From positions 11,386-75,385 of the forward strand of contig NZ_JBEVDL010000094.1 in the NCBI RefSeq assembly GCF_040514055.1: a stretch of 64,000 nt of DNA, written 5' to 3'. This DNA is from Pseudomonas sp. (GTDB taxonomy: Bacteria; Pseudomonadota; Gammaproteobacteria; Pseudomonadales; Pseudomonadaceae). The translations under genes and the position numbers were made by a program. Every line of letters starts with the position of its first letter. The stretch's first letter is position 1. This document shows, in pieces, positions 623 to 55,494 of the stretch. Under the pieces are notes generated by a model. The model did not search any database. It worked only from the letters and a program-made list of their open reading frames with translations, and was not told where the DNA came from.

Positions 623-3600
623 ATGCAATGGCTGTTCATGCTGGTCGGTTTGCTGTGCGGTGGGCTGGTCAGCCAGTCCACCTCGGGGGCGATACTGGGC
701 TTTCTGCTCGGCTTGGGGCTGGCGCAGGCGCTGCGCCTGGAAACGCTGGCGCGGGAAAACGCGCGCCTGACCCTGCAGCTGAAAACCTTTGCCGCGCGTT
801 TCGATGACGGCACCGAGGCGCTGCACGAACGACTGCGGCGGCTCGAGCAGGCGCCCGTCGAGCCGCCGGTCCAGGCCACAGAGCCCTCCGTGGTCGCGCC
901 GGCCGAGGTCGAAGTGCCTGCGCCCCCGGTGCGGGTAGCGGTTCCTCATGCGCCGCTGCCAGCGTCGCCGGAGCTGATCTGGGAACTGCCGGCCGACCTG
1001 CCCTTCGAGGCGCCGCGCCAGTCTGCCAGCGCGGATGCAACTCGGCAGGAGCCCTCGCCTTGGGTCGCCGAAGCGGTTGAATCGCCTGCGCCGCCGCCAC
1101 GCCCGCCCGCCCAGGCGCCTGAACCGCGCCAGCCCTCCATCGTCGAGCATGGCTTCGAGCTGGCCAAGGCCTGGCTGTTCGGCGGCAATACGGTGCTGCG
1201 CATTGGCGTGGTGCTGTTGTTTCTCGGCCTGGCGTTTTTGCTGCGTTATGCCACCGAAGGCATGGTGGTGCCCCTGGAAGCGCGTTACGCCGGGGTGGCC
1301 GCCAGCGCCATGGCCTTGCTGGGGCTGGGCTGGTGGCTACGGCTGCGCAACCCCAACTACGGCCTGATGCTGCAGGGCGCCGGGATCGCGGTGATGTACC
1401 TGACAGTGTTCGCCGCCATGCGCCTGCACCCACTGCTCGATCCGAAGGCAGCGCTCGGCCTGCTGGTGTTGGTGACCCTATGTTCGGCGATCCTGGCGGT
1501 GACCCAGAATGCCCTCGGGTTGGCGGTCGCGGCGGCGCTCGGCGGTTTTGCCGCGCCGATCCTGACGTCCACCGGCAGCGGCAACCATGTGGCGCTGTTT
1601 TCCTACTTTATCCTGCTCAATGGCGGCATTTTCGCCATCGCCTGGTTCAAAGCCTGGCGACTGCTCAACCTGGTCGGTTTTGTCGGCACCTTTGGCATCG
1701 GTTTCGCCTGGGGGCTGAAGAACTATGCGCCAGAGTTGTTAGGGAGCACCGAGCCATTCCTGCTGCTGTTTTTCCTGATGTACGTGGCCATCGGCCTGTT
1801 GTTCGCCCGGCGCAAGCTGCGCGAGGCGGCAGCGGCGGGAGAGGCGCCGCTCGAGCGCGACGCCTTGCTGCGCTGGTCGGCGCGCCAGGGCGACTATGTC
1901 GATGGCACCGTGCTGTTCGGCCCGCCGCTGGTGGGGTTTGGTCTGCAGGTCGCGCTGGTGCGCCACCTGGAGTTCGGCGCCGCGTTCAGCGCCCTGGGCC
2001 TGGGCCTGTTCTACCTGACCCTGGCGACCCTGTTGGCTCGGCGCACGGCCGGGCGCGCCTCGCTGCTGGTGGAAACCTGCCTGGCCCTGGGTGTGGTATT
2101 CGCCAGCCTGGCGATTCCCCTGGGCCTGGACGCCAGCTGGACCTCCGCCGCCTGGGCGGTGGAAGGGGCGGGTATCTACTGGCTGGGCTTGCGCCAGGGT
2201 CGCCGGCTGGCGCGCGCCTTTGCCCTGTTGCTGCAGGCCGGTGCCGCCCTGGCCTTTCTCCCGGGGCTGCGGGTCGGCATGGACAGCCTGCTGCAGGGCT
2301 CGCCCTTGGGCGCCTTGATGCTCGGCCTGGCGCTGTCGTTCAGCTATTGGCAACTGCGCCAGCGGGCTACTGCCCCCGCAGTGCTCAGTGACCGGCAGGG
2401 TCGGCTATTACCGTGGCTGGCGGTGGCCGGCCTGGGGTTCCTGTACCTGATCGCGCCGCTGCTGTTCGGCGCCGAGGCCACTGCCATCAGTTGGGCGCTG
2501 GCGGGCCTGGCAACGCTCTGGCTGGGCCTGCGCCTGCAGGCGCGGGTCTTTCTGTTCTGCGCCTTTGCCGTGCAGTTGCTCGGTGGCCTGGTGTTCCTGC
2601 TGCAGCTCGACGCGGGTCAGGGGGCGGCGGGCGGCGTACTGGACGACGGCTGGCGCGGCTTGCTGACGGCATCGCTGATCGGCCTGACGCTGATCGGCGG
2701 CATGCTGTTGGCGGTGCGCGACCCACTGGTGCAGTGCGACCGCCGGTTACTGCGCGGCATGTCGGTGCTGCTGTTGCTTGGCCTGGTCTTTCTTAACCTG
2801 GCAGTGTTGTTCGTATTGCCCTGGCAGAGCGCCAGCGCGGTCTGGGGTGGCAGCGGCTTGTTGATCGTCTGGCTCAGTTTGCAGCTGCAACAGCGCGCCA
2901 GTTTCGTTTTCGGCCTGGCGTTGCAAGTCCTGGGCGGGCTGGCGTTCCTGGCCGCCAGCCCGCTGCTGCTGGGCCGTCTCAGTGGCGAAGGCTTGAGCCC
3001 GCTGGCCCATGCCGGTTTCTGGACTCCGGCGGTGCTGGCCCTGGCCGCCCTGGTCGGTGCCTGGCGCCTGCAGCAGGCTCGCCCCGCCGATCAGGCGCTC
3101 AGCGCGATCAGCCTGGCCCAGCTGTCCCAGTTGCTGCTGGTCTGGGGCGGCGCCTGGTGGGTACTGGCCGGGGTCAGCGAGGTGCTGCGTTTCTGCATCC
3201 CTGAGCGGCACGCGGCGGCGCTGCTGCTGGTGGCGGCCGTCACCGCCGCGCTCTGGGCCCTGGTCGCCGTGCGCAGTCAATGGCGTGGCCTGGCCGCCCT
3301 GTGTGCCTTGCTGGTTCCCGCCGGGGCACTGGTGCTGCTGTACGCCTGGCACAGCCGGTATCACCCGGCGGCGGAGTTCGGTTGGCTCGGCTGGGGGCTG
3401 GTGTTCGCCGTGCACCTGCTGAGTCTGCGGCGCCTGGCCCCCTTGCTGCCCGCGGGGCCGCTGAGTGCCAGCCATGTACTGGGCTGCTGGTTGATCCTCG
3501 GCGTGTTGTCGCTGGAGCTGCGCTACCTGCTGTACGCCTTGTCCGAGCAATACAACGCCTGGCGCTGGCTGGGCTGGGCGCTGTTGCCCAGCGCCTACCT

Positions 3601-4279
3601 GTGGTGGACCGTGCAACCGGCCGGGTCCAGTTGGACCGCGCCGGCGCGTGGCCCATGGCCGTTGTCCGCCTTCCCCCGGGAATACCGGCTGTGGGCGGCG
3701 GCGCCCCTGGCCGGCCTGATGCTGGCGTGGTTCTGGCTGGCCACCTTGTTCAGCGACGGCAACGCCGACCCCTTGCCCTACCTGCCGTTGCTCAATCCCC
3801 TGGAACTGGGATTGGCGATCAGCCTGCTCTGCCTGTATCGCTGGTTGGCTTTCGGCCTGGTGCCCTTGGGTATCGCCGAGCCCCAGGCCACCCGGCTGCC
3901 GCTGCTGCTGGCCGGCGCGTCGCTGTTCGCCCTGCTCAGCACCGCGGTGCTGCGCGCGGTACATCAGTGGGGCGGGGTACCTTACCGTATTGGGCCGCTG
4001 CTCGAGTCGATGCAGGTGCAAGCCGGCTGGTCGCTGGTCTGGACCCTGATCGCGTTGCCGCTGATGATCCTCGGCCATCGCCGCGGACGTCGCGAACTGT
4101 GGCTGTTGGGCGCCGCCTTGATCGGAGTCGTGGTGGCCAAGCTGTTTTTCGTCGAGCTGGGCAATCGTGGCGGCCTGGAACGCATCGTGTCCTTTATCGG
4201 AGTGGGCGTGCTGTTGCTGGTGGTGGGTTACTTCGCCCCCCTGCCGCCCCGTCAAACCCAACCGGAGACCGAGCGTTGA
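623..4279 (+). CDS. DUF2339-family large polytopic membrane protein (1218 aa)
   Basis: Pro-rich N-terminal linker, then WLFGGNTVLRIGVVLLFLGLAFLLRY and a C-terminal RIVSFIGVGVLLLVVGYFAP; many hydrophobic segments. Confidence 0.85.
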   Translation: MQWLFMLVGLLCGGLVSQSTSGAILGFLLGLGLAQALRLETLARENARLTLQLKTFAARFDDGTEALHERLRRLEQAPVEPPVQATEPSVVAPAEVEVPAPPVRVAVPHAPLPASPELIWELPADLPFEAPRQSASADATRQEPSPWVAEAVESPAPPPRPPAQAPEPRQPSIVEHGFELAKAWLFGGNTVLRIGVVLLFLGLAFLLRYATEGMVVPLEARYAGVAASAMALLGLGWWLRLRNPNYGLMLQGAGIAVMYLTVFAAMRLHPLLDPKAALGLLVLVTLCSAILAVTQNALGLAVAAALGGFAAPILTSTGSGNHVALFSYFILLNGGIFAIAWFKAWRLLNLVGFVGTFGIGFAWGLKNYAPELLGSTEPFLLLFFLMYVAIGLLFARRKLREAAAAGEAPLERDALLRWSARQGDYVDGTVLFGPPLVGFGLQVALVRHLEFGAAFSALGLGLFYLTLATLLARRTAGRASLLVETCLALGVVFASLAIPLGLDASWTSAAWAVEGAGIYWLGLRQGRRLARAFALLLQAGAALAFLPGLRVGMDSLLQGSPLGALMLGLALSFSYWQLRQRATAPAVLSDRQGRLLPWLAVAGLGFLYLIAPLLFGAEATAISWALAGLATLWLGLRLQARVFLFCAFAVQLLGGLVFLLQLDAGQGAAGGVLDDGWRGLLTASLIGLTLIGGMLLAVRDPLVQCDRRLLRGMSVLLLLGLVFLNLAVLFVLPWQSASAVWGGSGLLIVWLSLQLQQRASFVFGLALQVLGGLAFLAASPLLLGRLSGEGLSPLAHAGFWTPAVLALAALVGAWRLQQARPADQALSAISLAQLSQLLLVWGGAWWVLAGVSEVLRFCIPERHAAALLLVAAVTAALWALVAVRSQWRGLAALCALLVPAGALVLLYAWHSRYHPAAEFGWLGWGLVFAVHLLSLRRLAPLLPAGPLSASHVLGCWLILGVLSLELRYLLYALSEQYNAWRWLGWALLPSAYLWWTVQPAGSSWTAPARGPWPLSAFPREYRLWAAAPLAGLMLAWFWLATLFSDGNADPLPYLPLLNPLELGLAISLLCLYRWLAFGLVPLGIAEPQATRLPLLLAGASLFALLSTAVLRAVHQWGGVPYRIGPLLESMQVQAGWSLVWTLIALPLMILGHRRGRRELWLLGAALIGVVVAKLFFVELGNRGGLERIVSFIGVGVLLLVVGYFAPLPPRQTQPETER

Positions 4280-6187: not shown

Positions 6188-8104
6188 ATGAAACGAGTGT
6201 TGACGCCCCTGGCCGCCGCTTGCCTGCTGGCCCTGGCTCCCGCGGTACAGGCTTCGCCCTACAGCGGATTCGTGGTGTTCGGCGACAGCCTCAGCGATGC
6301 CGGGCAGTTTCCCGACACCGCGGGCCCGGACGGGGCGACCCGGCGTTTCACCAACCGGGTGGGCCCGACGTTCCAGGGCGGCTCCGGCGAAATCTACGCG
6401 CCCAATGCCACCATGCTGATCAGCGAGCAACTGGGCCTGGGGCCCTCGATTGGCTCGACCTCGCCGGTCAACGAAGCCCTGGGCCAGGCTGACGGGCGTA
6501 ACTATGCCGTGGGCGGCAATATCACGGCGCAGGTCTACGACTCGATCACCGGCAGCGGCGAAGGCTCGGTGGTCGAGACCACCGACGGCACCAACCTGCG
6601 GGTCCGCGAGGCCTATCTGGTGGAACTGGCCAACCGTGGCCTGGCCGTGGACCCGAACACCCTGTTTTATGTCAGCGCCGGCGGCAACGACTTTCTCGAC
6701 GGGCTGATTCTCAGCCAGCCCCAGGCGGTGGCCTCGGCCGGTCGTGTGGCGGACAGCGTGCGCGCCCTGCAGGCGGCGGGCGCGCGCTATATCGTGGTGC
6801 CATTGCTCGGCGATGTCAGCCAGACGCCTTTCGCCCTGAACGCCGGGGTCTCGGATTTTATCGCGCCGCTGGCGGCGGGTTTCAACCAGGAGCTGGCCCA
6901 CCAGCTGGCTGGCATCGACGCCGAAATCATCCCCTTGAATGTGCCGCTGTTGGTCAAGGAGGCCGTGGCCAATCCCGGCCAGTTCGGCCTGGCCACGGAC
7001 CAGAACCTGACCCTGACCTGCTTCGACGGCTGTGCCAACGTCAACCCGGTCTACGGGATCAACGGCACCACCCCGGATCCGACCCGCCTGCTGTTCAATG
7101 ACGGCGTGCACCCGACCATCACCGGCCAGCGCATCGTCGCCGACTACACCGTCTCGCTGCTTAGCGCACCCTACGAATTGACCCTGCTGCCGGAGATGGC
7201 CCACGGTACGTTGCGGGCCCACCAGGACCAGCTGCGCAGCCAATGGCAGGCCGATTGGCAGGCCTGGCAACCGGCCGGCCAACTGCGCACCTTTGTCAGT
7301 GGCTCGGGGCAGCAGCAGGATTTCGACCGTCAAGCGGCCTCGGTGGATGCCGACAGCGACGGATACGCCTTGAACCTGGGCGCCAGCTACCGGCTGGACG
7401 ACGCCTGGCGGGTTGGGTTGGCGCTGGGCCTGGACGAGCAGGAGCTGGATGCCGAGGCCTCGGATTACCAACTGCGCAGCTACCTGCTGACGGCCTTCGC
7501 CCAGTACCAGCACAACCGCTGGTGGGCCGACCTGAGCGCCACCGGGGGCAAGCTGGACTATGACGACCTGCAGCGTGGTTTCGACCTGGGCGTCGGCCAG
7601 CGCACGGAAAAAGGCGACACCGAGGGGGATCTGTGGGCCTTCGGCGGACGCCTGGGTTACGACATCGCGGAGGAGGGCAGCGTCTGGCACCTGAGCCCCT
7701 TTGTCAGCGGCGACTACGCCCGGGTCGAGGTCGACGGCTATTCCGAGAGCGGCGCACGCTCCACGGCGCTGGCCTTCGGCGACCAGGAACGCACGTCCAA
7801 GCGCCTCGGCGTGGGCCTGCAAGGGCGTTACGCCTTGAGCGCCGACACCCAGCTGTTCGGCGAAGTGGCCCATGAGCGTGAGTACGAGGACGACGCCAGC
7901 GAGCTCGACCTGTCCCTCAACAGCCTGCCAAGCCTGGGCTTCAGCCTGCAGGGCTACACCCCGGAGGACAAGATGAACCGCGTCAGCCTGGGCTTCAACC
8001 AGCAACTGGGCAGCGGCCTGGCCTTGCGCGGCGGCTACAGCCTGCGCCAGGGCGAAGACGACACCCAACAGGGCGTCAACCTGTCGCTGGTGCTCGACCT
8101 CTAA
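6188..8104 (+). CDS. estA: Autotransporter GDSL esterase
   Basis: Signal peptide, VFGDSLSDAG block I, YAVGG, GGNDF, LFNDGVHPT block V, and a C-terminal autotransporter beta-barrel. Confidence 0.93.
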   Translation: MKRVLTPLAAACLLALAPAVQASPYSGFVVFGDSLSDAGQFPDTAGPDGATRRFTNRVGPTFQGGSGEIYAPNATMLISEQLGLGPSIGSTSPVNEALGQADGRNYAVGGNITAQVYDSITGSGEGSVVETTDGTNLRVREAYLVELANRGLAVDPNTLFYVSAGGNDFLDGLILSQPQAVASAGRVADSVRALQAAGARYIVVPLLGDVSQTPFALNAGVSDFIAPLAAGFNQELAHQLAGIDAEIIPLNVPLLVKEAVANPGQFGLATDQNLTLTCFDGCANVNPVYGINGTTPDPTRLLFNDGVHPTITGQRIVADYTVSLLSAPYELTLLPEMAHGTLRAHQDQLRSQWQADWQAWQPAGQLRTFVSGSGQQQDFDRQAASVDADSDGYALNLGASYRLDDAWRVGLALGLDEQELDAEASDYQLRSYLLTAFAQYQHNRWWADLSATGGKLDYDDLQRGFDLGVGQRTEKGDTEGDLWAFGGRLGYDIAEEGSVWHLSPFVSGDYARVEVDGYSESGARSTALAFGDQERTSKRLGVGLQGRYALSADTQLFGEVAHEREYEDDASELDLSLNSLPSLGFSLQGYTPEDKMNRVSLGFNQQLGSGLALRGGYSLRQGEDDTQQGVNLSLVLDL

Positions 8105-10832: not shown

Positions 10833-11105
10833 CTAGGGCCTGTGGGCACTACCCGCACGGCCGCGCCGACCCTGGTTTTGAAACCCTACCCAGCATGAAA
10901 CGAGCCGTCGGGGGCGTCAGAACGAACCACGCGTCATCCCCTGTCGCATCAAAACAGGGCCTGCCCTGCGGGTTGCGCGAACAAGTGCCCCATGCCGCGT
11001 TGCGAAACTGGGCAAGGGAATGACCATTGCCGGCGTTTCGCGCCTTGCCTGGACCCCTTCTTCGCGGCAACGCGCCTCGCGATGCTTAATGTCCACAGGC
11101 CCTAG
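10833..11105 (-). mobile_element. MITE-like non-autonomous element, copy 2 (273 bp including both CTAG)
   Basis: TIRs CTAGGGCCTGTGGGCA and TGTCCACAGGCCCTAG (15/16 match); homologous to copy 1 in inverted orientation. Confidence 0.78.
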
Positions 11106-11593
11106 TGCGCCGGTTGTGCCGCGGGCACTGGCGGCGGGGCGGCCGCTGGCCGGCGCGGCTGGCGCAGCACGATGTTGAGCTGGCTGGGGGCGCTGCCGTG
11201 CTCGAACACGGCGCTGGCCAGGGCGGGTTTGCCCCGTAGCTGAGCGGGGTTGCCGGAAAAACCGGTGGGTTCCTGGGGGATGCCGCGCGGGCTGAGGTCG
11301 AGCTGGCCGTTGCCGTTGCTGTCCTGGTACAGCTGCACCGCGTACCGCCCCGGCGGCACCTCATCGAAGCGCAGAGCTGCCGTCTGGCTTTCCACCAGGC
11401 GCAGGGGGCGCTCCGGCCAGTCCGCCTGGTCGGCGGCCACCAGCGCGGCCCGCAGGGTTCCAAGTGGGGCCCAGCCGGCGACCTGCACCTCGATGTCGGC
11501 GGCCACGACGGCGCCCCCGAACAGCCCGATCGTCAGGGCCAACAGCCCAGTCTGGGCGCGGATCGTTACAAGTTTACGCAGGCTATATGGCAT
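11102..11593 (-). CDS. DUF2141-family exported protein
   Basis: Hydrophobic signal-like N-terminus; PPGRYAVQLYQDSNGNGQLD...GIPQEPTGFSGN motif; its TAG stop lies in the MITE CTAG. Confidence 0.8.
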   Translation of the reverse strand: MPYSLRKLVTIRAQTGLLALTIGLFGGAVVAADIEVQVAGWAPLGTLRAALVAADQADWPERPLRLVESQTAALRFDEVPPGRYAVQLYQDSNGNGQLDLSPRGIPQEPTGFSGNPAQLRGKPALASAVFEHGSAPSQLNIVLRQPRRPAAAPPPVPAAQPAH

Positions 11594-11627
11594 AATTCGG
11601 GCCGTTTTGGCGGCGTGAATGATTGGA

Positions 11628-12545
11628 ATGCGGCGGATTCTGGTGGTGCACTACTCGCAAACGGGCCAGCTGGATCGCCTGGTCCAATCGGTCTGCGCGC
11701 CCCTGTTGCGCCAGGAAGGCATTCGGCTGGACTTCCTGGCCCTGCAGCCGGCACGACCTTACCCCTTTCCCTGGCCGTTTTTCAGCTTTTTCGGCATTTT
11801 TCCGGAAACCGTGCTGATGCGCCCGCCGCCCTTGCTGCCACTGGCGGTGGACGCAGAGACCCGCTACGACCTGGTGATCCTGGCCTATCAGGTGTGGTTT
11901 CTGTCGCCCTCGCTGCCGCTCACCGGTTTCCTTGCAACCCCCGAAGCGGCGCGGCTGCTGCGGGGCACACCCGTGCTGACCCTGATTGGTTGCCGCAATA
12001 TGTGGCTGATGGCCCAGGAAAAGGTCAAGGCCCGGCTCGCCACCCTGGGCGCGCGCCTGGTGGACAATGTCGCGGTGATCGACGAGTGTGGCAGTGCCTG
12101 GAGTTTCCTCACCACCCCCTTATGGATGTTCACCGGCGATCGCCAGCGCTGGTCCTGGTTGCCCAAGGCCGGCATCAGCGATGGGCAGATCGCCGCCGCC
12201 AGTCGTTTCGGCGAAGCCATAGGCGCGCGCCTGGTGCGTGATCCGCTGCCGATCGAGGCGCCGATGCTGCGCGGTCTGGGGGCGGTGCGGGTGAATGAGA
12301 AACTGATCGCCAGCGAGCGAGTTGGTGCCCGCAGTTTTCGCCTGTGGAGCCTGCTGCTGGCGGCATTGGGACCCCAGGGTAGCCGGGCGCGCAAGGCCGG
12401 GATCCTGCTGTATTTCGTCTTCCTGTTCTGTTTGATCCTCACCGTGGTCCCTGTCACCGCGTTGCTGAAAAAATTGCTGGGCCCGCTGGTGCGTAAGAAA
12501 ACCCAGCGTGAAAAGGCCTATTTCGCCGCGCCATCCGGCGAGTAG
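11628..12545 (+). CDS. darA: DarA-type dialkylresorcinol aromatase/condensing enzyme
   Basis: Flavodoxin-like N-terminus ILVVHYSQTGQL, PYPFPW, YQVWFLSPSLP and CRNMW motifs; directly upstream of a DarB-type KS. Confidence 0.85.
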   Translation: MRRILVVHYSQTGQLDRLVQSVCAPLLRQEGIRLDFLALQPARPYPFPWPFFSFFGIFPETVLMRPPPLLPLAVDAETRYDLVILAYQVWFLSPSLPLTGFLATPEAARLLRGTPVLTLIGCRNMWLMAQEKVKARLATLGARLVDNVAVIDECGSAWSFLTTPLWMFTGDRQRWSWLPKAGISDGQIAAASRFGEAIGARLVRDPLPIEAPMLRGLGAVRVNEKLIASERVGARSFRLWSLLLAALGPQGSRARKAGILLYFVFLFCLILTVVPVTALLKKLLGPLVRKKTQREKAYFAAPSGE

Positions 12546-12548
12546 TCG

Positions 12549-13727
12549 ATGTCTTTTGAGGATTGCACCGTGCCCCACCCCGTGTTTATCAACCGCGTCA
12601 GCGCGTACCTGCCCCACGCGCCGGTCGACAACGACCAGATGGAAACACGCCTGGGCCAGGTCGGCGGCCGTCCCTCGCGGGCCCGCAACCTGGTGCTGCG
12701 CAGCAACGGCATCACCCAGCGGCATTATGCAATCGACCCGCAGTCGGGCTTGCCGAGCCTGACCAACGCGCAAATGAGTGCCGAGGCCATCCGCGGCCTG
12801 GAAGGTCCCGGCTTCGACCTGCGGCGCCTCGAATGCCTGGTGGCCAGCAGCGCCTCGCCGGATCAGGTGATGCCCAACCATGCGGTGATGGTGCATGGCG
12901 AACTGGGCAACCCGGTCTGCGAGGTGGTGTCCACCGCCGGCATCTGCCTGTGCGGCGTCACCGCGCTGAAATACGCCTACCTCAGCGTGGCCAGCGGCGA
13001 GACCGCCAATGCGGTCGCCTGCGGTTCGGAGCTGGCCTCCAGCCTGATGCATGCGCGCAATTTCGAAGCCGAACTGGACAGCCGGGTCGATGCGCTGGAA
13101 CAGAATCCCGAGATCGCCTTCGAGAAGGACTTTCTGCGCTGGATGCTCTCCGACGGGGCCGGCGCCGTCTGGCTGGAAGCGGCGCCCAATGCCCAGGGAC
13201 TGAGCCTGCGCATCGACTGGATCGATATTCTCTCCTTCGCCGACAGCATGCCGCCCTGCATGTACGCGGGCGCCGAGCGCGAGGGCGAGCGCCTGATCGG
13301 CTGGAGCCGCTTCGATGGCGAGGCGCGCAATCGCCACTCGGTGATGGCGATCAAGCAGGACGTCAAATTGCTCAACGACAATATCGTGCGGGTCACGGTC
13401 GAGCAGGCCCTGGAGCGTATCCTGGCGCGACGTCCGTTGAGCGCCGAGGCCATCGATTATTTCCTGCCGCACTACTCCTCGGAGTTCTTTCGCCAGCGCC
13501 TGGCGGTCGGCCTGGCCAACGCCGGCCTGCCGATTCCCCAGGAGCGCTGGTTCACCAATCTGACGCGCAAGGGCAATACCGGCGCGGCCTCGTTTTTTAT
13601 CATGCTTGAAGAGCTGTTCAATGGCGGCACGCTGCGCCCCGGGCAGACGCTGCTGGGCTACGTGCCGGAAAGCGGACGCTTCTCCAGCGCCTTCCTGCAC
13701 CTGACCGTGGTAGGGAACCAGCCATGA
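12549..13727 (+). CDS. darB: StlD/DarB-family KAS III-type ketosynthase (cyclohexanedione synthase)
   Basis: Catalytic Cys (STAGIC), His (FLPHYSS) and Asn (GNTGAAS); FEKDFLRWMLSDGAGA and VPESGRFS motifs. Start may be GTG near 12570. Confidence 0.88.
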   Translation: MSFEDCTVPHPVFINRVSAYLPHAPVDNDQMETRLGQVGGRPSRARNLVLRSNGITQRHYAIDPQSGLPSLTNAQMSAEAIRGLEGPGFDLRRLECLVASSASPDQVMPNHAVMVHGELGNPVCEVVSTAGICLCGVTALKYAYLSVASGETANAVACGSELASSLMHARNFEAELDSRVDALEQNPEIAFEKDFLRWMLSDGAGAVWLEAAPNAQGLSLRIDWIDILSFADSMPPCMYAGAEREGERLIGWSRFDGEARNRHSVMAIKQDVKLLNDNIVRVTVEQALERILARRPLSAEAIDYFLPHYSSEFFRQRLAVGLANAGLPIPQERWFTNLTRKGNTGAASFFIMLEELFNGGTLRPGQTLLGYVPESGRFSSAFLHLTVVGNQP

Positions 13728-14131
13728 AACTCGACGAGGTGCCCCAGGACCACAGCAGTACCTATGGTGGGCACAGCAAGCTGGTCTACGCCCTGGACGC
13801 CGGTGGCCGTTATCAGTCGGCGCAGAGCGATGGCTGGGAGCCGGAAGCCTATGCCACCCAGCTGGCGGTCGCCGAGCTCCAGGCCCAGGAACAGGCCGCG
13901 CTGAGCGATTGGCAGGCCGGCCGTGCTTCGCCCTTGAAGTACCTGATGTGCCAGTGCCGCATGGATGAACCGGCGCTGGCGCAGATTTCCGGCCTGTGGC
14001 GCTGGCGCATCCGCCGCCACTTCCAGCCCCACCATTACGCCCGTCTGCCACGACGGGTCCTGGCGCGTTATGCCGAGGCCTTGGGCCTGGATGTCGCGCA
14101 GTTGATCCGCTATCAGCGAGAGTCCGCATGA
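13724..14131 (+). CDS. Conserved hypothetical protein with possible C-terminal XRE-like HTH
   Basis: ATGA-coupled to darB and to the next gene; C-terminus LAQISGLWRWRIRRHF...VLARYAEALGLDVAQL. Confidence 0.7.
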   Translation: MKLDEVPQDHSSTYGGHSKLVYALDAGGRYQSAQSDGWEPEAYATQLAVAELQAQEQAALSDWQAGRASPLKYLMCQCRMDEPALAQISGLWRWRIRRHFQPHHYARLPRRVLARYAEALGLDVAQLIRYQRESA

Positions 14132-15129
14132 CGGTTTTCCAGCACCAGCAGAGTGCCCACTGCGAAAGCGGGGTCATGGCCAGCCTGCTGACCCACAGCG
14201 GCCTGCCCATGAGCGAGCCGATGGCCTTTGGCCTGGCCTCGGGGCTGGCCTTCGCCTACCTGCCGATCGTCAAGCTGGGTGGCATGCCGCTGATCGCCTA
14301 CCGCATGCCGCCCCGGCACCTGATCAAGACCCTGAGCAAGCGCCTTGGCGCCCACCTGCACACCGCTACCTTCGCCGGCCCGGCCCAGGGCCAGGCGGCG
14401 CTGGATGGCGCGCTGGCCGCGGGACGCCTGGTGGGGCTGCAGAGTTCGGTGTACTGGTTGCCGTATTTCCCCGAAGAGATGCGCTTTCATTTCAATGCCC
14501 ACAACCTGTTGGCCTACGGCAAGGACGGCGATCAGTACCTGCTCAGCGATCCGGTCTTCGAAGACGTGGTGCGCTGCAGCGAGGCGGACCTCAACAAGGC
14601 GCGCTTCGCCAAGGGCGCGCTGGCCGCCAAGGGGTTGCTGTACTGGCTTGACCAGGTCCCGGTCGAGCAGGATTGGGCCACGCTGATCCGCCAGAGCATC
14701 CTGTCCACCAGCCGTATTCTCGATGGCCTGCCGTTGCCCTGGATCGGCATTCGCGGTATCCGCCATCTGGCCGGGCGGGTGCGCAAGCTCGACCCCGCGG
14801 CGCTGAAATACAACCGCCTGTACCTGACCCATATCGTGCGCATGCAGGAAGAGATCGGTACCGGCGGCGCGGGGTTTCGCTTTATGTACGCCTCCTTTCT
14901 GCAGGAGGCGGGGCTCAAACTTGGCGATGCGCGCCTGGCCGAGGCGGCGCTGGAAATGACCCGTATCGGCGACGACTGGCGGCAATTCGCCGCGGCCTGC
15001 GTGCGCTACAGCCGCAACAAGCAGGGCCACAGCGACTTCGAACCCATTGCCCTGGCGCTGGAAGGCATCGCCGAGCAGGAGCGGGCCCTGATGCGCCAGC
15101 TGGCGGCCTGGGCCAAGGCCAAGTCTTAA
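14128..15129 (+). CDS. BtrH N-terminal domain / DUF4872 protein (papain/C39-like fold)
   Basis: HQQSAHCESG (Cys), FHFNAHN (His), YLLSDP (Asp); RMQEEIGTGGAGFRFMYASFL motif. Confidence 0.8.
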   Translation: MTVFQHQQSAHCESGVMASLLTHSGLPMSEPMAFGLASGLAFAYLPIVKLGGMPLIAYRMPPRHLIKTLSKRLGAHLHTATFAGPAQGQAALDGALAAGRLVGLQSSVYWLPYFPEEMRFHFNAHNLLAYGKDGDQYLLSDPVFEDVVRCSEADLNKARFAKGALAAKGLLYWLDQVPVEQDWATLIRQSILSTSRILDGLPLPWIGIRGIRHLAGRVRKLDPAALKYNRLYLTHIVRMQEEIGTGGAGFRFMYASFLQEAGLKLGDARLAEAALEMTRIGDDWRQFAAACVRYSRNKQGHSDFEPIALALEGIAEQERALMRQLAAWAKAKS

Positions 15130-15145
15130 GGGGGCAGGCCTGTTT

Positions 15146-15715
15146 TCAGCCGGTGCGTAGGTCCAGCCGTGTCACGCGGACGCCGGCCGTCAGGCTGGCG
15201 AAGTCCGTGCCCGCCAGCGGGCCGCCGTCGCCCGGTTCGAGCAGCAGCGCCTGGACCTGGAAACCGTCGCGTTCGTCGCAGAGCACCAGCAGCGCCTGGC
15301 CGATCACGCCCTCGGCCAGGTCCAGGCCGGCCAGACGAGTCAGGTCGGACCAGACGTCCGGCCCCGCACCGATAAACAGGTTGGGGCCGTTCAACCGCAA
15401 CTGCTGGGCGACGTGAAAGCCGGCGGCATTACTCACGCTGTTGACGAACTCGAAGGGTTTGGGCAGTTTTCCGTGCACGCAAACCGCTTCCAGCAGGGCC
15501 TGCATGGTCGGCCTGGCGGGATAGCTCGAGGCCAGGTACAGGCCGCTTTCCGCGCGCGGGCGTGACTGCAGCACGGCGGCGCCGAGCAGGGCCTGCAGGA
15601 TCAGGCGGTCGACCCGCCGCGGGGGGTGGTCGAGGTAGCAGCTCAAGTGCGCCTTGAGGGCCTTGTCGTCGACCGCGGCGTTGCCGTCGATCTGGCTGGC
15701 GGCGATCACCTTCAT
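15146..15715 (-). CDS. Short ketosynthase-like protein with no visible catalytic Cys (chain-length-factor-like)
   Basis: PFEFVNSVSNAAGFHVAQQLRLNGPN resembles the KS N-terminal domain; coupled to the KS gene by a 4-nt overlap. Confidence 0.6.
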   Translation of the reverse strand: MKVIAASQIDGNAAVDDKALKAHLSCYLDHPPRRVDRLILQALLGAAVLQSRPRAESGLYLASSYPARPTMQALLEAVCVHGKLPKPFEFVNSVSNAAGFHVAQQLRLNGPNLFIGAGPDVWSDLTRLAGLDLAEGVIGQALLVLCDERDGFQVQALLLEPGDGGPLAGTDFASLTAGVRVTRLDLRTG

Positions 15716-16818
15716 AAGCCCATTCCCTGCAGTACCAGGCTGGCGTTGTTGCCGCCAAAGCCGAAAAAATTCGCCAGCAGCAGCCCATCCACCGGTGCTC
15801 GCCAGGCCGCGCCCGGCAGCGCCAGCAGCGCCTGGTCGGCATAGTCCACGCCGGGCAGGCTGCCCTGGCGCAGGGCCTCCAGCAACAGCAGGCTTTCGCT
15901 GAGTCCGCAGGCGCCCAGGGTATGGCCCAGGTAGGGTTTGAGCAGCACGGCCGGCGGCAGGTGTCGGCCGAACAAGCGTTGCATGCCATTGCCTTCGGCG
16001 TGGTCGTTGGCCGCGGTTGCCGTGCCATGCAGCTTGACCAGGTCGATCTGGCCGGCAGTGATGCCCGCGCTGTCCAGGGCCCGGCGCATCACCCAGTCGA
16101 CGTGGCTGCCGTCCTCCAGGGTGGTGGTCAGGCTGCTGGTATCACAGGCACTGAAGCCGCCAAGCAGGCGGGCCAACGGTGCCGGGCCGGGCTCCGCGCT
16201 CAGCAGCACGCTGGCATAACACTCGCCGAGGATCAGGCCGTCGCGCTCAGGGTGAAAGGGCCGATAACGGGCGCTGGGGCTGACCAGTTCAAGGGCGGCA
16301 AAACCCTGCATGGCGACGCGACTGGGGGTCTCGAAACTCAGCACCAGGGCACGGCGCAATGGCCCCTGGCCCAACAGGCGCGCGCCGTAGAGCAGGGCGT
16401 TGGCGGCGCTGCTGCAGGCGGTGTTGAGGGTAAAGGCGGCGGCGAAGCCCCAGGCCCCGCGCAGTCGCTGGGCGAGTCGATCGAGCGGGGTGACCAGGCT
16501 GTCGTCGAACGGCTGGCCCGCGACCATCTGCGGCTCGATGTCGGCGATATCCAGGGTGGTGGTGGCAATGATCAGCAGGCAGTCGGTCAGGGGGGCCGGG
16601 TGCTCGCCGAGGCTGCTGCGCAACAGTGCATCGAGGCGTTCGAGCAAGGGCAGGGGGCTGCCCGTGGCGTGAAAATACGGGCACTGCTGGGGCAGCTCCA
16701 ACCGCTGGTAGTGACTTGCCAGCGGGCGTCGATCGGCGCGGTAGGCGCTGGCGGCGCTGCCCAGGTCAGGCCCCAGGGCGCTGTGCAGCTGGGCGCGTTG
16801 CAGGTAGACCGGCGTCAC
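15712..16818 (-). CDS. Beta-ketoacyl-ACP synthase (FabF/FabB type)
   Basis: TACSSA (Cys), KLHGTAT (His), KPYLGHTLGACG (His), NFFGFGGNNASL. Confidence 0.9.
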   Translation of the reverse strand: MTPVYLQRAQLHSALGPDLGSAASAYRADRRPLASHYQRLELPQQCPYFHATGSPLPLLERLDALLRSSLGEHPAPLTDCLLIIATTTLDIADIEPQMVAGQPFDDSLVTPLDRLAQRLRGAWGFAAAFTLNTACSSAANALLYGARLLGQGPLRRALVLSFETPSRVAMQGFAALELVSPSARYRPFHPERDGLILGECYASVLLSAEPGPAPLARLLGGFSACDTSSLTTTLEDGSHVDWVMRRALDSAGITAGQIDLVKLHGTATAANDHAEGNGMQRLFGRHLPPAVLLKPYLGHTLGACGLSESLLLLEALRQGSLPGVDYADQALLALPGAAWRAPVDGLLLANFFGFGGNNASLVLQGMGL

Positions 16819-17081
16819 TGCCCGTGCCTGATAAAGGCGGCGATGCTGTCGATGCTGGCCAGGATCCGGCGGCCTTCCTTGGCCCCCTCGATGCGTACGC
16901 CGTAGTGCTGCTGCACCGCCAGCGACAACTGCAGGGCGTCCAGGCTGTCCATCTGGATCCGGCTCTGGCGGCCGAAGAGCGGCTCGTCATCGGCGATGCC
17001 CTGCCAGTCGAGTTCGTCTTCCTTGTCGCATTCGCGCACCAGGAGTTGCTTGAGTTGTTGCTTCAGTAGTGCGTCGTCCAT
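16815..17081 (-). CDS. Acyl carrier protein (DarC-like role)
   Basis: 88 aa, acidic, with MDSLDAL phosphopantetheine motif. Confidence 0.9.
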   Translation of the reverse strand: MDDALLKQQLKQLLVRECDKEDELDWQGIADDEPLFGRQSRIQMDSLDALQLSLAVQQHYGVRIEGAKEGRRILASIDSIAAFIRHGQ

Positions 17082-18253
17082 TGGGTTTCACTTAGTCGGC
17101 GTTGAAACAGCGCCAGCCCCAGGCTACCGGTCAGGGCGGCGAACAGCAGCAGGCGGATACAGTAGGGCAGCAGGTCAGCGAGGTCGCCCTGGCCCACCAG
17201 CAAGGTCAGAAAACCATCCAGCGCCCAGCTCATGGGTGACAGCTCCGCCACCTGGCGCATGGCTTCGGGCATCACGCTCTTGGGCACCATGATGCCGCCG
17301 ATGGCGGCCAACACCAGGTTGAGTCCGCCGCTGAGCAGCAAGGCCTGTTCGGTGCTGCGCGCCAGGGCGGCGATGGCCAGGCCCAGGCAACAGGCGGCGC
17401 AGGCCAGGCTGCTGGCCAGCAGCAGATAGGCCCAGGGGCTGCCCGGCAGGTTCAGGGCGCTCAAGCCTAACAGCGGTAAGCCCCAGACACCCAGGGCCAG
17501 CAGCACGCAGAACTGCAGCAGGTTGACCCCCAGGTAGGGCAGCAGTTTGCTCAAGGCCAGTTGCGCCAGGCTCAGGCGCAGGCAGCGAAAGCGCAGCAGG
17601 GTGCCGCTCTGTTGTTCGCGCTGGAAACTGTTGGCCATGGGCAACATGACGAAAAACATGCCGAAGATCAGCCAGGCGGGCACGCTGTGCTGGCTGGCAT
17701 TGGCCTGCAGGGCGAGATCTCCACTGGCCAGCACTTCCTGTTCGACAATGGCGTTATGGGTGCGTTGGCGGATCAGCGCCAGACGTTCCTGCAGGGGGAG
17801 CTCGGCGGCCAGCTCGCCACTGTCGACCAGCAGCGCCATCAGTCGGGTCTGGGCCAGGCTGACCTCGACGGCAGCCCGCAGGCGTTGGCGCGAGAGGGCG
17901 TCGGTACGGGCGGGAAAAACCAGTCGGGTGGCGGCGGCGCCTTGGTCCTGCAGCAGGGTGTCGGCGAAATCGGCCGGCAGATAGATGCGCGAGCGGCTCG
18001 CCGCAGGCTCGGACTGCAGCGGACTGTCGGGCAACTGGGCCGCCAGGGCGGCGGCGAAAAAGGCGCTTTCGTCGCTGCTGACCGGTATTTCCAGCCCCAG
18101 GTGCAGCGGTGGCAGGCGGTTCTGATTGACCTCGGCCAGGGCAAAGGCCATCAGCAGCAAGAACAGCGCCGGCATGATAAAGAGCACTGCCAGGGCATGC
18201 AGGTCGCGGCGCAGCAACAGGCCTTCCTTGCGCACCAGGGCCCAGAGCCTCAT
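17063..18253 (-). CDS. ABC-2 type transporter permease
   Basis: Start MRLWALVRKEGLLLRRD at 18253; REQQSGTLLRF, GGIMVPKSVMP and LSPMSWALDGF motifs; the last 19 nt overlap the ACP start. Confidence 0.85.
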   Translation of the reverse strand: MRLWALVRKEGLLLRRDLHALAVLFIMPALFLLLMAFALAEVNQNRLPPLHLGLEIPVSSDESAFFAAALAAQLPDSPLQSEPAASRSRIYLPADFADTLLQDQGAAATRLVFPARTDALSRQRLRAAVEVSLAQTRLMALLVDSGELAAELPLQERLALIRQRTHNAIVEQEVLASGDLALQANASQHSVPAWLIFGMFFVMLPMANSFQREQQSGTLLRFRCLRLSLAQLALSKLLPYLGVNLLQFCVLLALGVWGLPLLGLSALNLPGSPWAYLLLASSLACAACCLGLAIAALARSTEQALLLSGGLNLVLAAIGGIMVPKSVMPEAMRQVAELSPMSWALDGFLTLLVGQGDLADLLPYCIRLLLFAALTGSLGLALFQRRLSETQWTTHY

Positions 18254-19146
18254 AGCTGCCCACCGCTGAAATGCAGGTACAGCTGTTCCAGGGACGGACG
18301 GCCGAAACGCAGCAGGCTGGGCAGCGGCGCCTGGGTGCCGACGAACTCGGCGATGCGCGCCAGCGCGGCGGCGTCCAGTTGCTCGATCCAGCAGCCGTTG
18401 GGCAGCCATTCGACGTCCAGTCGCAGCGCCTCGAGCAAGGCCCGCACGCCGGCCGGCGGCGGCCCCGGCCATTCCAGCAGCAGGCCATGACGGTCGCCCA
18501 GCAACTGCTGCTTGTCCAGGTCGAGGCGTACCTGCCCCTGTTGCAGTAACAAGATGCGTTGCGCCACCCGCTCGACCTCGTCGAGGTAGTGGCTGGTGTA
18601 GATCACCGCCTTGCCGGCGGCGGTCAAGGCCTGGATCGCGTCCAGCAGCAGCAGCCGCGACTGCGCGTCCACACCCACGGTGGCTTCGTCGAACAGGTAG
18701 AGCGGGGCGGGTTGCAGCAGGCCCAGGGCGAAGTTGAGCCGGCGTTGCTCGCCGCCGGAAAGGCGGTCGGCGCGCCGCGACAGTTTGTCTTCCAGGGCGG
18801 TGCTGTGGATCACCCACTCCAGGCGGGTACGCCGCTCGGCGTCACGCAACCGATAGAGGTCGGCGAACAGCCCGAGGTTCTCGCGCACGCTCAGGGCCGC
18901 GTAAAAGCCCAGTTGCTGCGGGACTATGCCCAGTAGTGGCCGCTCGGCCTGTTCGCCGCACCAGCGCAGCTCGCCCTGGTCCGGCCGCAGCAGACCACTG
19001 ATCAGCGACAGCAGGGTGGTCTTGCCCGCCCCGTTGGGGCCCAGCAGGCCCAGGCATTCGCCCGCGCCCAGGCGCAGGTCGATCTGTTGCAAGGCCGGCG
19101 CGCTGGCGCCGGGGTAGCTGAATCCGACGGCACGCAGCTCAAGCAC
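18250..19146 (-). CDS. ABC transporter ATP-binding protein
   Basis: Walker A GPNGAGKTT, signature LSGGEQRR, Walker B LYLFDE, H-loop YTSHYLDE. Confidence 0.93.
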   Translation of the reverse strand: MLELRAVGFSYPGASAPALQQIDLRLGAGECLGLLGPNGAGKTTLLSLISGLLRPDQGELRWCGEQAERPLLGIVPQQLGFYAALSVRENLGLFADLYRLRDAERRTRLEWVIHSTALEDKLSRRADRLSGGEQRRLNFALGLLQPAPLYLFDEATVGVDAQSRLLLLDAIQALTAAGKAVIYTSHYLDEVERVAQRILLLQQGQVRLDLDKQQLLGDRHGLLLEWPGPPPAGVRALLEALRLDVEWLPNGCWIEQLDAAALARIAEFVGTQAPLPSLLRFGRPSLEQLYLHFSGGQL

Positions 19147-19546
19147 TGACCAGCACCAGCAGCAACTTGCCGTCCAGTAACAGGCGTTCGTGGGTGCTGA
19201 TGCTAAAGCGGTAGCTGGCGCCGGCTGGGCTCAGGCTTTCCTGGGCGGCCTGGACCAGCAAAGCGCCGCTGCGGCACTCGGGCTCCTGGTGCAGGCGCAG
19301 CTGGCTGACCTTGCCGACCAAGGCCATGTCGACCGCGCCGCGGTCGCCGTAGAGCGCCCCGTGGGCCGCGCAGAGCTGCGCGGCGGCTTCGAACAACAGA
19401 CAGGGCGAGGCATCCTCGGCCAGATTCGCCAGATGGCTCCAGTCGCTCAGGCCGCTGATTCCTTGCGCATCATGGGCCAGCAGCCGGTCCAGCCAGAGGG
19501 CGGCGCCCTGGTGCGGCAGCAGGCGGTGCAAGTGCGTTCGGTCCAT
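19139..19546 (-). CDS. Hotdog-fold 3-hydroxyacyl-ACP dehydratase-like protein
   Basis: LLPHQG...LLFEAAAQ resembles FabZ/ApeP LPH and EAxAQ motifs; start placed at ATG 19546. Confidence 0.7.
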   Translation of the reverse strand: MDRTHLHRLLPHQGAALWLDRLLAHDAQGISGLSDWSHLANLAEDASPCLLFEAAAQLCAAHGALYGDRGAVDMALVGKVSQLRLHQEPECRSGALLVQAAQESLSPAGASYRFSISTHERLLLDGKLLLVLVSA

Positions 19547-19624
19547 GGTATCCGGTCGCCGGGGTTGAACGCGCAGTGTACCAGTTAGGCGCTGCCGCGC
19601 GACCCGGCTGCCGGGGGCCATGCA

Positions 19625-20056
19625 TCATTGCCAGTTCAGGCGCGCCAGTTTCCATTCGCCGTCCTCCAGCCACCACTCCAGGTCGACCTGGTACTGGCGC
19701 GCGCTGTCGGGAATCAGCCCCTCGGCGCCGGTGAGCGCCACGCGCGCCTGGGTGTGGGCCTTCTGCGAATAGGTGGGGTCCAGCTGACTGTCTTCAGACA
19801 GCACCAGCACCCGGATATTCTTGTATCGCAGAAAAACCAGGGCCATGCTTCGTTTGGCCCAGTCACGGTCCAAGCTCTGTTGTTGGGCGCTAAATTGCGG
19901 ATGCAACTGATCGAGCACCGCCGTCGTCTGCTTGGCCTCTAGGGTGTTTTGCAAGCGCGCCACGGCCGCCTCGAGTGCGGCCTGGGGGGCGTCGTGGCCG
20001 CAGCCGGCGAGCAGGGTCAACAGCGCCAGCAGCGCAACAAAAAACCTGGGTGACAT
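19625..20056 (-). CDS. Conserved lipoprotein (NTF2/DUF4440-like)
   Basis: Lipobox LAGC; C-terminal WWLEDGEWKLARLNW typical of NTF2-like folds. Confidence 0.7.
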   Translation of the reverse strand: MSPRFFVALLALLTLLAGCGHDAPQAALEAAVARLQNTLEAKQTTAVLDQLHPQFSAQQQSLDRDWAKRSMALVFLRYKNIRVLVLSEDSQLDPTYSQKAHTQARVALTGAEGLIPDSARQYQVDLEWWLEDGEWKLARLNWQ

Positions 20057-20292
20057 GCTCGATTCCTGTTTCGTGGTTATGATGCCCGGCACGGCCGCCG
20101 CACCCTACTGTAGAACAGGGGTAGGTCGGGGTGAACCCGGCGCATTTACACGCGCCCACTGGCGCGCGCGCAGGTCGCCGGCCAAGGCACGCAAGACCAG
20201 GATCCGCCATGACTTGACGGTTCGTGGATTTCAGGATGAATTGAGCGGTGCTCTTATCGAGGGGCACCCCTGTAACGACTCGGGAGCGCACT

Positions 20293-34558: not shown

Positions 34559-34708
34559 GGGGTAAACACTCCGTTGTTAACCGTCATGGTTTGCAAACAA
34601 GCCGGCAAGGCTTGGTCCCTGGCGCGCCGGAGGTTCCTTCCAGACAGCCACGCACAGACTGGACTTGTTACACCAGGCACCTGAGTGGGTCAAGGTTTTC
34701 TCGGGGGT

Positions 34709-35566: not shown

Positions 35567-35656
35567 GCGCAAAGCCCTATGGGTTTAATCGCTGGGAAAG
35601 CCGTCCAGCGCTTTTCCAGAATGGCGAAGCCGGCCTCCGGCAAGGACTTCATGGGT

Positions 35657-35681
35657 GCCCCTCCAGCCAGGCTGGAGGGGC
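35657..35681. terminator. 11-bp perfect hairpin between phaC1 and phaZ
   Basis: GCCCCTCCAGC-CAG-GCTGGAGGGGC; no U tract. Confidence 0.45.
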
Positions 35682-35765
35682 GAGCGGCACTTCCCGGTGC
35701 CGCCAGCAGCGATTGCGCAGGCAGTGACCTTTTAGTTCCGTGGCGCTGGGCCGTATCGCAATCGG

Positions 35766-50320: not shown

Positions 50321-50474
50321 GATTCGTGGATTTCCAGGTAAAAGAATGGGTTAAGCGCAAGGTTATGCGAAAAGGGGAAAACTGTTCACATTATAAGCGC
50401 TTTTTTTCCTGGGTAGCCATTTGCGCTTATGTCAAGACTGTTATTTAATGTGAAAAAACATAAATAGTCCGTAA

Positions 50475-51565
<1,091 letters not shown>

Positions 51566-51566
<1 letters not shown>

Positions 51567-53288: not shown

Positions 53289-53339
53289 GGCGGGGTGGAT
53301 ATGAAGAATAATTACCGGTCTATACAACGGAACCTGAGA

Positions 53340-55490: not shown

Positions 55491-55494
55491 TTCG

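Follow-up and report, generated by a model that had tools for sequence, protein, structure and literature searches.

In Pseudomonas chlororaphis/aurantiaca the HPR cluster consists of darABC together with darS/darR, and Photorhabdus has StlCDE. The product of these clusters is a free antibiotic or signal and not a building block of a pigment, as exemplified by HPR in P. chlororaphis and by dialkylresorcinol (DAR)/cyclohexanedione (CHD)-PauR signalling in Photorhabdus asymbiotica. In flexirubin clusters (Chitinophaga pinensis/Flavobacterium), darA and darB are accompanied by flx genes, the starter enzyme is of the TAL type and an aryl polyene (APE) is esterified to the DAR (PMC3992019). The dar locus of Azoarcus sp. 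BH72, azo0283-0293 (in order darK, J, C, I, [H, G], F, E, D, B, A), is the DAR part of arcuflavin, a xanthomonadin-DAR hybrid (Schoner et al. 2014, PMC3949708). The polyene (arc) loci of BH72 are separate from dar and no free DAR was detected in its extracts; heterologous expression of its DAR-biosynthesis proteins in E. coli gave free DAR (PMC3949708). A 2023 genome-mining report also describes hybrid APE-DAR gene cluster variants (V1-V3) from marine Pseudomonadaceae (PMC10165715). Our literature searches turned up no APE-DAR pigment of this family whose chemistry has been characterised.

The window analysed here, the whole 64-kb stretch of Pseudomonas sp. DNA, contains a dar locus that was originally predicted to be stand-alone and self-contained, with an unusual architecture. 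Our analysis shows that its gene set has already been described as the DAR part of yellow flexirubin/arcuflavin-type pigments and is not a new stand-alone system. Since this known dar gene set is matched by APE genes on the same contig, we consider the locus very probably to be the DAR module of an ordinary two-part APE/DAR pigment pathway of the flexirubin/arcuflavin kind, split by 47.6 kb.

Relation to described dar clusters

We compared the gene list with Table 1 of PMC3949708. DarA, DarB, DarD, the BtrH-like DarE, the ABC proteins DarF and DarI, the ACP DarC, the ketosynthase (KS) DarJ and DarK are all shared with Azoarcus and, as in BH72, the polyene genes are encoded away from the dar module. 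The two systems differ in host (a beta-proteobacterium as against Pseudomonadaceae), in a PilT/Phd toxin-antitoxin insertion found in the Azoarcus dar locus, and in the FabZ-like dehydratase and DUF2141 genes, which are present here and absent from the Azoarcus table. They also differ in the polyene starter, which involves a XanB2-type chorismatase (3-/4-hydroxybenzoate) in Azoarcus but an aromatic ammonia-lyase, a candidate flexirubin-type starter enzyme, here. With this gene content, and with gene order and orientation repeated in roughly 70 of the 80 loci from related species, the architecture is not an unusual one.

The flexirubin cluster (PMC3992019) has DarA, DarB, a DarG-family protein and a BtrH-related acyltransferase in common with our locus. 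Its hosts, however, are Bacteroidota, the APE half here has a proteobacterial, E. coli-type organisation, and the small protein DarD scores 117.4 bits against the flexirubin_DarG equivalog NF053545, under the cut-off of 170. The hybrids of PMC10165715 also occur in Pseudomonadaceae and combine an E. coli/Vibrio-type APE cluster with a DAR module distinct from the HPR cluster; they are connected, whereas here core genes separate the halves by 47.6 kb. With the HPR cluster and StlCDE our locus shares the StlD-like DarA/DarB chemistry leading to cyclohexanediones and resorcinols. In contrast to these, our locus lacks the AraC regulators, its DarB reaches 458.1 bits against the HPR-type resorcinol_DarB model NF053539 (cut-off 550), and it additionally carries DarD, the BtrH-like enzyme, KS/CLF, the ABC pair, the dehydratase and DUF2141.

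Organisation and enzymes of the DAR module

We confirmed 11 translationally coupled genes at 11102-19546 in window numbering. All were present where the original prediction had placed them, and the order that it gave is right once the minus-strand genes are read along transcription (Table 1). The plus-strand series DarA-DarB-DarD-BtrH-like converges on the minus-strand series FabZ-like dehydratase-ABC ATPase-ABC-2 permease-ACP-KS-CLF-like half-KS, the stop codons of the two operons being 16 bp apart, and gene junctions either overlap by 4-19 bp or are spaced by 3 bp. The open reading frames called at 13996-15129, 17063-18817 and 19139-19621 were cut back to 14128, 18253 and 19546, respectively, because of operon coupling and homologue start sites. 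The true start of the DUF2141 gene may lie ~15 codons downstream of the called one, since its homologues are ~148 aa long. A Pfam scan of flanking ORFs identified lipocalin, DUF924 and FBPase to one side of the module, with alpha/beta-hydrolase, Dtd and DsbA beyond its other end. There was no AraC-type darS/darR at the locus and no AraC HTH domain in the scanned flanking ORFs, in agreement with the predicted lack of these regulators. A gene for a 155-aa lipoprotein (19625-20092) was rejected as a cluster member because it is present in just 29 of the 80 loci and missing from fused APE-DAR clusters.

Table 1. Genes of the DAR module (window coordinates) and the evidence for each assignment
Product	Coordinates	Strand	Evidence
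DUF2141 secreted protein	11102-11593	-	PF09912, 68.9 bits; divergent from darA
DarA, CHD-to-resorcinol aromatase, 305 aa	11628-12545	+	72-75% identity to many Pseudomonas and Stutzerimonas proteins named 'dialkylresorcinol condensing enzyme' by NCBI
DarB, StlD/DarB-family KS III	12549-13727	+	NF005293 StlD/DarB, 569.3 bits (cut-off 450)
DarD, 135 aa	13724-14131	+	NF053536 DarG_fam, 168.5 bits (cut-off 70)
BtrH-like papain-fold acyltransferase	14128-15129	+	NF053550, 467.6 bits (cut-off 300); BtrH_N, 164 bits; DUF4872, 172 bits
DarK, KS-like/CLF-like (predicted), 189 aa	15146-15715	-	fold only
DarJ, elongating ketosynthase (putative)	15712-16818	-	Ketoacyl-synt_C, 65.5 bits
DarC, dedicated ACP	16815-17081	-	PP-binding, 19.7 bits, and NF006617, 41.9 bits (both under cut-off)
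DarI, ABC-2 permease	17063-18253	-	ABC2_membrane_3, 79 bits; ABC2_membrane, 75.8 bits
DarF, ABC transporter ATPase	18250-19146	-	ABC_tran, 97.2 bits
FabZ-like hotdog dehydratase (putative), 135 aa	19139-19546	-	fold only; opens minus-strand operon

DarA gave no Pfam or NCBIfam match even at E values up to 10, neither database having a curated DarA HMM; the 305-aa product of this window is itself already recorded. The protein carries a C-terminal membrane helix, and its gene occurs in 80/80 loci, directly upstream of darB with a 3-bp gap. DarB matches StlD (PDB 5gk0) with an E value of 5.7e-140 and its Cys-His-Asn triad (C133, H308, N343) is conserved (n=79 sequences). The DUF2141 protein has a signal-like hydrophobic stretch at its N-terminus; the gene adjoins darA in 77 of the 80 loci, Alteromonadales among them, and is also present in fused APE-DAR clusters.

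The darD gene overlaps both darB and the BtrH-like gene by 4 bp, and residues 72-131 of its product show a weak HTH_26 match (E 0.15). Azoarcus DarD is the 'DarG family' of NCBIfam, and the BtrH-like protein is Azoarcus DarE and NCBIfam DarH. In the BtrH-like protein the Cys-His-Asp triad (C12, H125, D141) is conserved (n=78 sequences), and the enzyme is presumed to esterify the resorcinol with the acyl chain of the APE. The original idea that the resorcinol is acylated through this enzyme is retained as a predicted step.

For DarJ, the top PDB sequence matches were ApeO (6qsp_A, 5e-33) and 7f28_B, with C135, H264 and H299 conserved (n=69 sequences), and the phosphopantetheine site of DarC (D45-S46-L47) is likewise conserved (n=67 sequences). 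The KS-like protein and the dehydratase had been named in the original prediction in spite of having no HMM support, and both identities were borne out by fold (AF2/Foldseek). DarK gave no Pfam or NCBIfam match, even at E up to 10. Its AF2 model (pLDDT 89.5) has as top Foldseek matches the small chains 7f28_C/A and ApeC (6qsp_B), no Cys or His is invariant across 23 homologues, and we predict a half-thiolase-fold, CLF-like KS partner. Marginal matches of the DarK family profile (E about 1e-3) to the FAD-dependent oxidoreductases 3m9v and 4kcf were regarded as chance, because the confident model fits half-thiolase KS/CLF chains. The dehydratase, in its 135- and 160-aa forms, gave no Pfam or NCBIfam match at E up to 10, and its alignment used as a profile gave no match to PDB sequences. 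Its AF2 model (pLDDT 86.9) superposes on FabZ structures with a TM score of 0.83 and on ApeI:P (6qsr_B) with 0.80, and H12 (LLPHQG) and E53 (FEAAAQ) are invariant among homologues.

The aryl-polyene cluster and alternative readings

Within 11.1-19.6 kb we found no ammonia-lyase, CoA-ligase or ketoreductase (KR), as originally noted. All three are, however, encoded in a complete 15-gene APE cluster on the same contig (G000:C6:78495-96772), 47.6 kb downstream of the DAR module and ~3 kb past the end of the window, the intervening DNA being filled by core genes. This cluster encodes an aromatic ammonia-lyase (PF00221 Lyase_aromatic, 523.5 bits; candidate substrates Tyr, His or Phe), a CLF (PF13723, 249.8 bits), an AMP-binding ligase, ApeI, ApeP, KR, two KS and a halogenase, with export and other genes for LolA-like, MMPL, DUF3261, GT2 and acyltransferase proteins. 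A separate APE cluster, which makes the locus the DAR half of a known type of pigment, is what the original prediction had named as telling against it. The description as self-contained is therefore withdrawn and, the module having been described and its APE half found on the same contig, so is its rank as best candidate for a new system in the window. Its classification as a DAR module of flexirubin style stands: the genes of the extended dar module are present and the genome has the APE partner.

The distribution of the two modules points the same way. Among 201 sampled Pseudomonadaceae genomes, which are related and hence not independent samples, an APE marker was present in all 21 DarB-positive genomes (these fall in 6 of the 21 genus groups sampled) and in 64 of the 180 DarB-negative ones. 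Orthologues of the DAR module and of the 15-gene APE cluster directly adjoin each other in four relatives (G122, G176, G067 and G033), 0.2-1.7 kb apart and in three different relative arrangements. In 28/80 species loci, three or more APE genes are found no further than 10 kb from DarB. The single scan of genome contigs returned close relatives only. The split arrangement, with the same flanking genes, is itself common to dozens of species, whose proteins are 60-90% identical.

These data bear on the reading in which the locus is a self-contained DAR/CHD pathway, with the ABC transporter exporting a product, either free or simply acylated, that acts as an antibiotic or diffusible signal. That KS/CLF, ACP, dehydratase and ABC exporter are all encoded within the module, that the APE genes are 47.6 kb distant and that the Azoarcus proteins gave free DAR in E. 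coli (PMC3949708) would fit such a pathway, but it is rendered very unlikely by the APE marker in every DarB-positive relative, the fusion of DAR and APE modules in many relatives, the universal retention of the BtrH-like acyltransferase with its triad intact, the score of DarB under the HPR-type cut-off (458 versus 550) and the lack of an adjoining darS/darR or LuxR-solo receptor. A decaying or silent remnant left after a split from the APE cluster, prompted solely by the thought that physical separation could relax selection, is scarcely credible, with all 11 reading frames intact, catalytic residues conserved across 67-80 orthologues, and a split layout and flanks whose sharing by dozens of species (60-90% identity) indicates long-term purifying selection.

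A proposed split pigment pathway

On the preferred reading, a two-part APE/DAR pigment pathway, DarJ-DarK (KS plus CLF-like partner) would condense a fatty acyl thioester with malonyl-DarC, and the beta-ketoacyl thioester would be kept as such because the DAR cluster has no ketoreductase. The FabZ-like dehydratase would turn a 3-hydroxyacyl-ACP into a 2-enoyl thioester. DarB would then join both substrates by Michael addition and Claisen cyclisation to a 2,5-dialkyl-cyclohexane-1,3-dione, as established for its homologues StlD and DarB, and DarA would aromatise this to the resorcinol, again as established for homologues. The BtrH-like Cys-His-Asp acyltransferase would transfer an ACP-bound aryl-polyene acid to a resorcinol hydroxyl, this acid probably being supplied by the ammonia-lyase, AMP-ligase, KS/CLF, KR, ApeI/ApeP and halogenase of the distal cluster. 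Finally, delivery of the lipid pigment to the cell envelope may involve the ABC-2 exporter and DUF2141 together with the LolA/MMPL/DUF3261 products of the APE cluster. Functions assigned to DarJ/DarK, the dehydratase, DarD and DUF2141 are putative, and we infer the ester linkage and the final pigment structure from the genes encoded.

As separate transcription units 47.6 kb apart, the DAR and APE modules may be expressed independently, and the exporter of the DAR module could also release free DAR. We consider it unlikely that an independently expressed module, besides feeding the pigment, also releases free DAR/CHD as a diffusible signal or antibiotic. Separately, DarJ, DarK, DarC and the FabZ-like enzyme may form a private, KR-less line of DarB precursors.

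The value of these results is mainly corrective: a resorcinol cluster that looks orphaned in a 64-kb window should not be declared novel until the whole genome has been checked for its polyene counterpart. In addition, the split and fused forms of one pathway in close relatives provide handy material for work on the pigment chemistry and on the accessory enzymes.

A complete aryl polyene cluster on the same contig

The dialkylresorcinol (DAR) module in the window had been taken for a stand-alone cluster and a candidate new system. The window spans C6:11386-75385 of its contig. In the genome under study (5.7 Mb, 101 contigs, ∼65% G+C), the aryl polyene (APE) marker PF13723 gave a single match, at C6:96065-96709, on the contig that also carries the dar module. 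Pfam scanning of the ORFs at this locus (L082, C6:78495-96772, corresponding to window positions 67110-85387, past the window's end) revealed a complete 15-gene APE cluster encoding two ketosynthases (KS), a ketoreductase (KR), ApeP and ApeI dehydratases, a DUF3261 protein, an FAD-dependent halogenase, MMPL-like and LolA-like proteins, an aromatic amino-acid lyase (523.5 bits), a lipid-A-type acyltransferase, a GT2 glycosyltransferase, an AMP-ligase, an ACP, an LPLAT acyltransferase and a Ketoacyl-synt_2 chain-length factor (CLF). Two of its ORFs had no Pfam match: one of ∼385 aa between the halogenase and MMPL-like genes and one of 181 aa upstream of the AMP-ligase. The APE cluster starts 47.6 kb past the dehydratase gene of the dar module and ∼3 kb past the window's end, with the core genes tatC, two phaC, priA, PBP1a and pilQ lying between. 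The presence of this cluster on the same contig refutes both the stand-alone reading and the claim to a new system.

Several features of the surrounding DNA were also recorded. At 32879-37445, a short gene is flanked by two genes for PhaC-type PHA synthases of 559 aa, the well-known class II pha locus of pseudomonads. The G+C content dips to 52-56% at 50000-56000, against ∼65% elsewhere, and this stretch holds a plus-strand operon, presumably pilMNOPQ, whose last gene encodes a PilQ-type secretin (53295-55490); the PBP1a gene (47900-50320) lies upstream and is divergent. Upstream of the dar cluster are genes for an EstA-like GDSL-lipase autotransporter (6188-8104) and a 1218-aa DUF2339 membrane protein (623-4279).

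Composition of the dar module

The ORF listing together with HMM scans bore out every gene named in the original prediction. For DarA, none of the Pfam and NCBIfam models scanned matched.

Genes of the dar module, in window coordinates (minus-strand genes in order of transcription)
Product	Position	Strand	Evidence or remark
DUF2141 protein	11102-11593		divergent from darA
DarA	11628-12545	+	72-75% identity to numerous NCBI-named 'dialkylresorcinol condensing enzyme' proteins
DarB	12549-13727	+	StlD/DarB family NF005293, 569 bits (cut-off 450)
DarD, 135 aa	13724-14131	+	NF053536 'DarG family', 168.5 bits (cut-off 70)
BtrH-related acyltransferase	14128-15129	+	NF053550, 467.6 bits (cut-off 300)
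FabZ-like dehydratase, 135 aa	19139-19546	-	first; fold match
ABC ATPase	18250-19146	-	second
ABC-2 permease	17063-18253	-	third
ACP	16815-17081	-	fourth
KS	15712-16818	-	fifth
KS-like protein, 189 aa	15146-15715	-	last; fold match

Gene junctions within the module are overlaps of 4-19 bp or 3-bp gaps, and the two operons converge with their stop codons 16 bp apart. Orthologue alignments showed that the catalytic residues of DarB (C133, H308, N343) and of the BtrH-like protein (C12, H125, D141) are kept, as is the D45-S46-L47 site of the ACP. Residues 72-131 of DarD gave a weak match to HTH_26 (Cro/C1-type; E 0.15), far below threshold.

Two minus-strand proteins, the dehydratase and the 189-aa protein, had no match in the HMM scans; for both, orthologues from related loci were aligned and structures predicted. 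The former is predicted to adopt a hotdog fold (pLDDT 86.9), its best structural matches being FabZ dehydratases (TM 0.83) and the ApeI:P dehydratase complex (6qsr_B, TM 0.80). Neither His12 (within LLPHQG) nor Glu53 (within FEAAAQ) varies in the alignment, which together with the predicted fold supports the dehydratase assignment. The 189-aa protein is modelled as half a thiolase fold (pLDDT 89.5), most similar to the small chains of 7f28 and to the chain-length factor ApeC (6qsp_B); no invariant Cys or His was found in its orthologue alignment. At the sequence level, the adjacent KS most closely resembles the corresponding partner chains, ApeO (6qsp_A, 5e-33) and 7f28_B, and it retains C135, H264 and H299. 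The pair thus looks like a KS:CLF heterodimer, and the KS-like assignment of the 189-aa protein is supported.

A gene for a 155-aa predicted lipoprotein (LLAGC lipobox; 19625-20092) adjoins the dehydratase gene. It was rejected as a cluster member since it is kept in only 29/80 species loci, all split variants, and is missing from fused APE-DAR clusters; it is probably flank.

Relation to known systems and linkage in relatives

The closest system is the dar locus of Azoarcus sp. BH72, which comprises darK (hypothetical), darJ (KS), darC (ACP), darI (ABC permease), a toxin-antitoxin insertion, darF (ABC ATPase), darE (BtrH-like), darD (conserved hypothetical), darB and darA (Schoner et al. 2014, Table 1; PMC3949708), and whose gene content equals that of the window cluster. 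A gene-order map built by tblastn of the window proteins against 80 species loci showed all eleven genes in identical order and orientation in ∼70 of them, in Pseudomonas, Ectopseudomonas, Phytopseudomonas, Stutzerimonas, Aquipseudomonas and Thiopseudomonas, with rearranged versions in Pseudoalteromonas, Paraglaciecola and Colwellia. Contrary to the earlier proposal, the architecture is therefore not unusual; what stands of the earlier interpretation is the gene identities and the flexirubin-style nature of the module. DarB itself shares 89% identity with its counterpart in a Pseudomonadota MAG and 73-80% with the DarB proteins of numerous species in Pseudomonas, Ectopseudomonas, Phytopseudomonas and Stutzerimonas, which places the host in the Pseudomonadaceae. 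Four loci (L006, L036, L042 and L059) have DUF2141, DarA, DarB, DarD and BtrH genes, yet a search of the 10-kb flank did not find the convergent KS/ACP/ABC/dehydratase operon; an insertion could account for this, or the module may have split further.

Assignment to the Pseudomonas HPR-type cluster is excluded, as DarB scores 458 against the NF053539 cut-off of 550 and the flanking ORFs scanned include no darS or darR. The module also differs from the Bacteroidota flexirubin cluster in that DarD misses the flexirubin equivalog cut-off (117 against 170). By sequence, the window cluster belongs to an already known kind of module, the Azoarcus dar type. Variants of a hybrid APE-DAR BGC had already been described from marine Pseudomonadaceae by Girard et al. 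2023 (PMC10165715), who noted their chemistry as undone; our literature search for chemical characterization of the Pseudomonadaceae APE-DAR pigment found none.

When DarB was scored against its family cut-off in 201 Pseudomonadaceae genomes from 21 genus groups, 21 genomes, from six of the groups, were positive. All 21 carry the APE marker, compared with 64/180 genomes without DarB, a consistent pattern rather than a statistic because related genomes are not independent. One in-frame TGA in the APE CLF gene of a DarB-positive relative (G108:C78:17683-18327) could mark a pseudogene or a sequencing error. We retrieved the regions from four relatives (G122, G176, G067 and G033) and mapped both protein sets; in each, the orthologous DAR module abuts the orthologous 15-gene APE cluster with a gap of 0.2-1.7 kb, the modules occurring in three differing relative arrangements. 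In 28/80 species loci, three or more APE genes are found no further than 10 kb from DarB. The split arrangement, with a lipocalin gene on one side and alpha/beta-hydrolase and Dtd genes on the other, is common to a group that includes P. kuykendallii, P. peli, P. anguilliseptica, A. alcaligenes and S. stutzeri.

Proposed pathway and product

In characterized homologues (StlD/DarB), DarB condenses a beta-ketoacyl thioester with a 2-enoyl thioester to a 2,5-dialkyl-cyclohexanedione, which DarA aromatizes. The KS and the 189-aa protein (DarJ and DarK in Azoarcus nomenclature), acting with the ACP (DarC), would supply the beta-ketoacyl thioester, a role consistent with the module having no KR, since the keto group has to be preserved, and the FabZ-like enzyme would supply the 2-enoyl partner. 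The BtrH-like acyltransferase may then esterify the resorcinol with an ACP-bound aryl-polyene acid. Free DAR went undetected in Azoarcus even though the DAR-biosynthesis proteins made it when expressed heterologously in E. coli (PMC3949708), an observation that speaks against its being the main product. For the APE half, the ammonia-lyase gene suggests that the starter is of the flexirubin type (coumarate) and differs from the XanB2 starter used for arcuflavin, and the halogenase gene suggests that the aryl ring is halogenated. The resulting pigment would be placed in the envelope by the ABC-2 exporter and the DUF2141 protein, together with the LolA, MMPL and DUF3261 proteins of the APE cluster.
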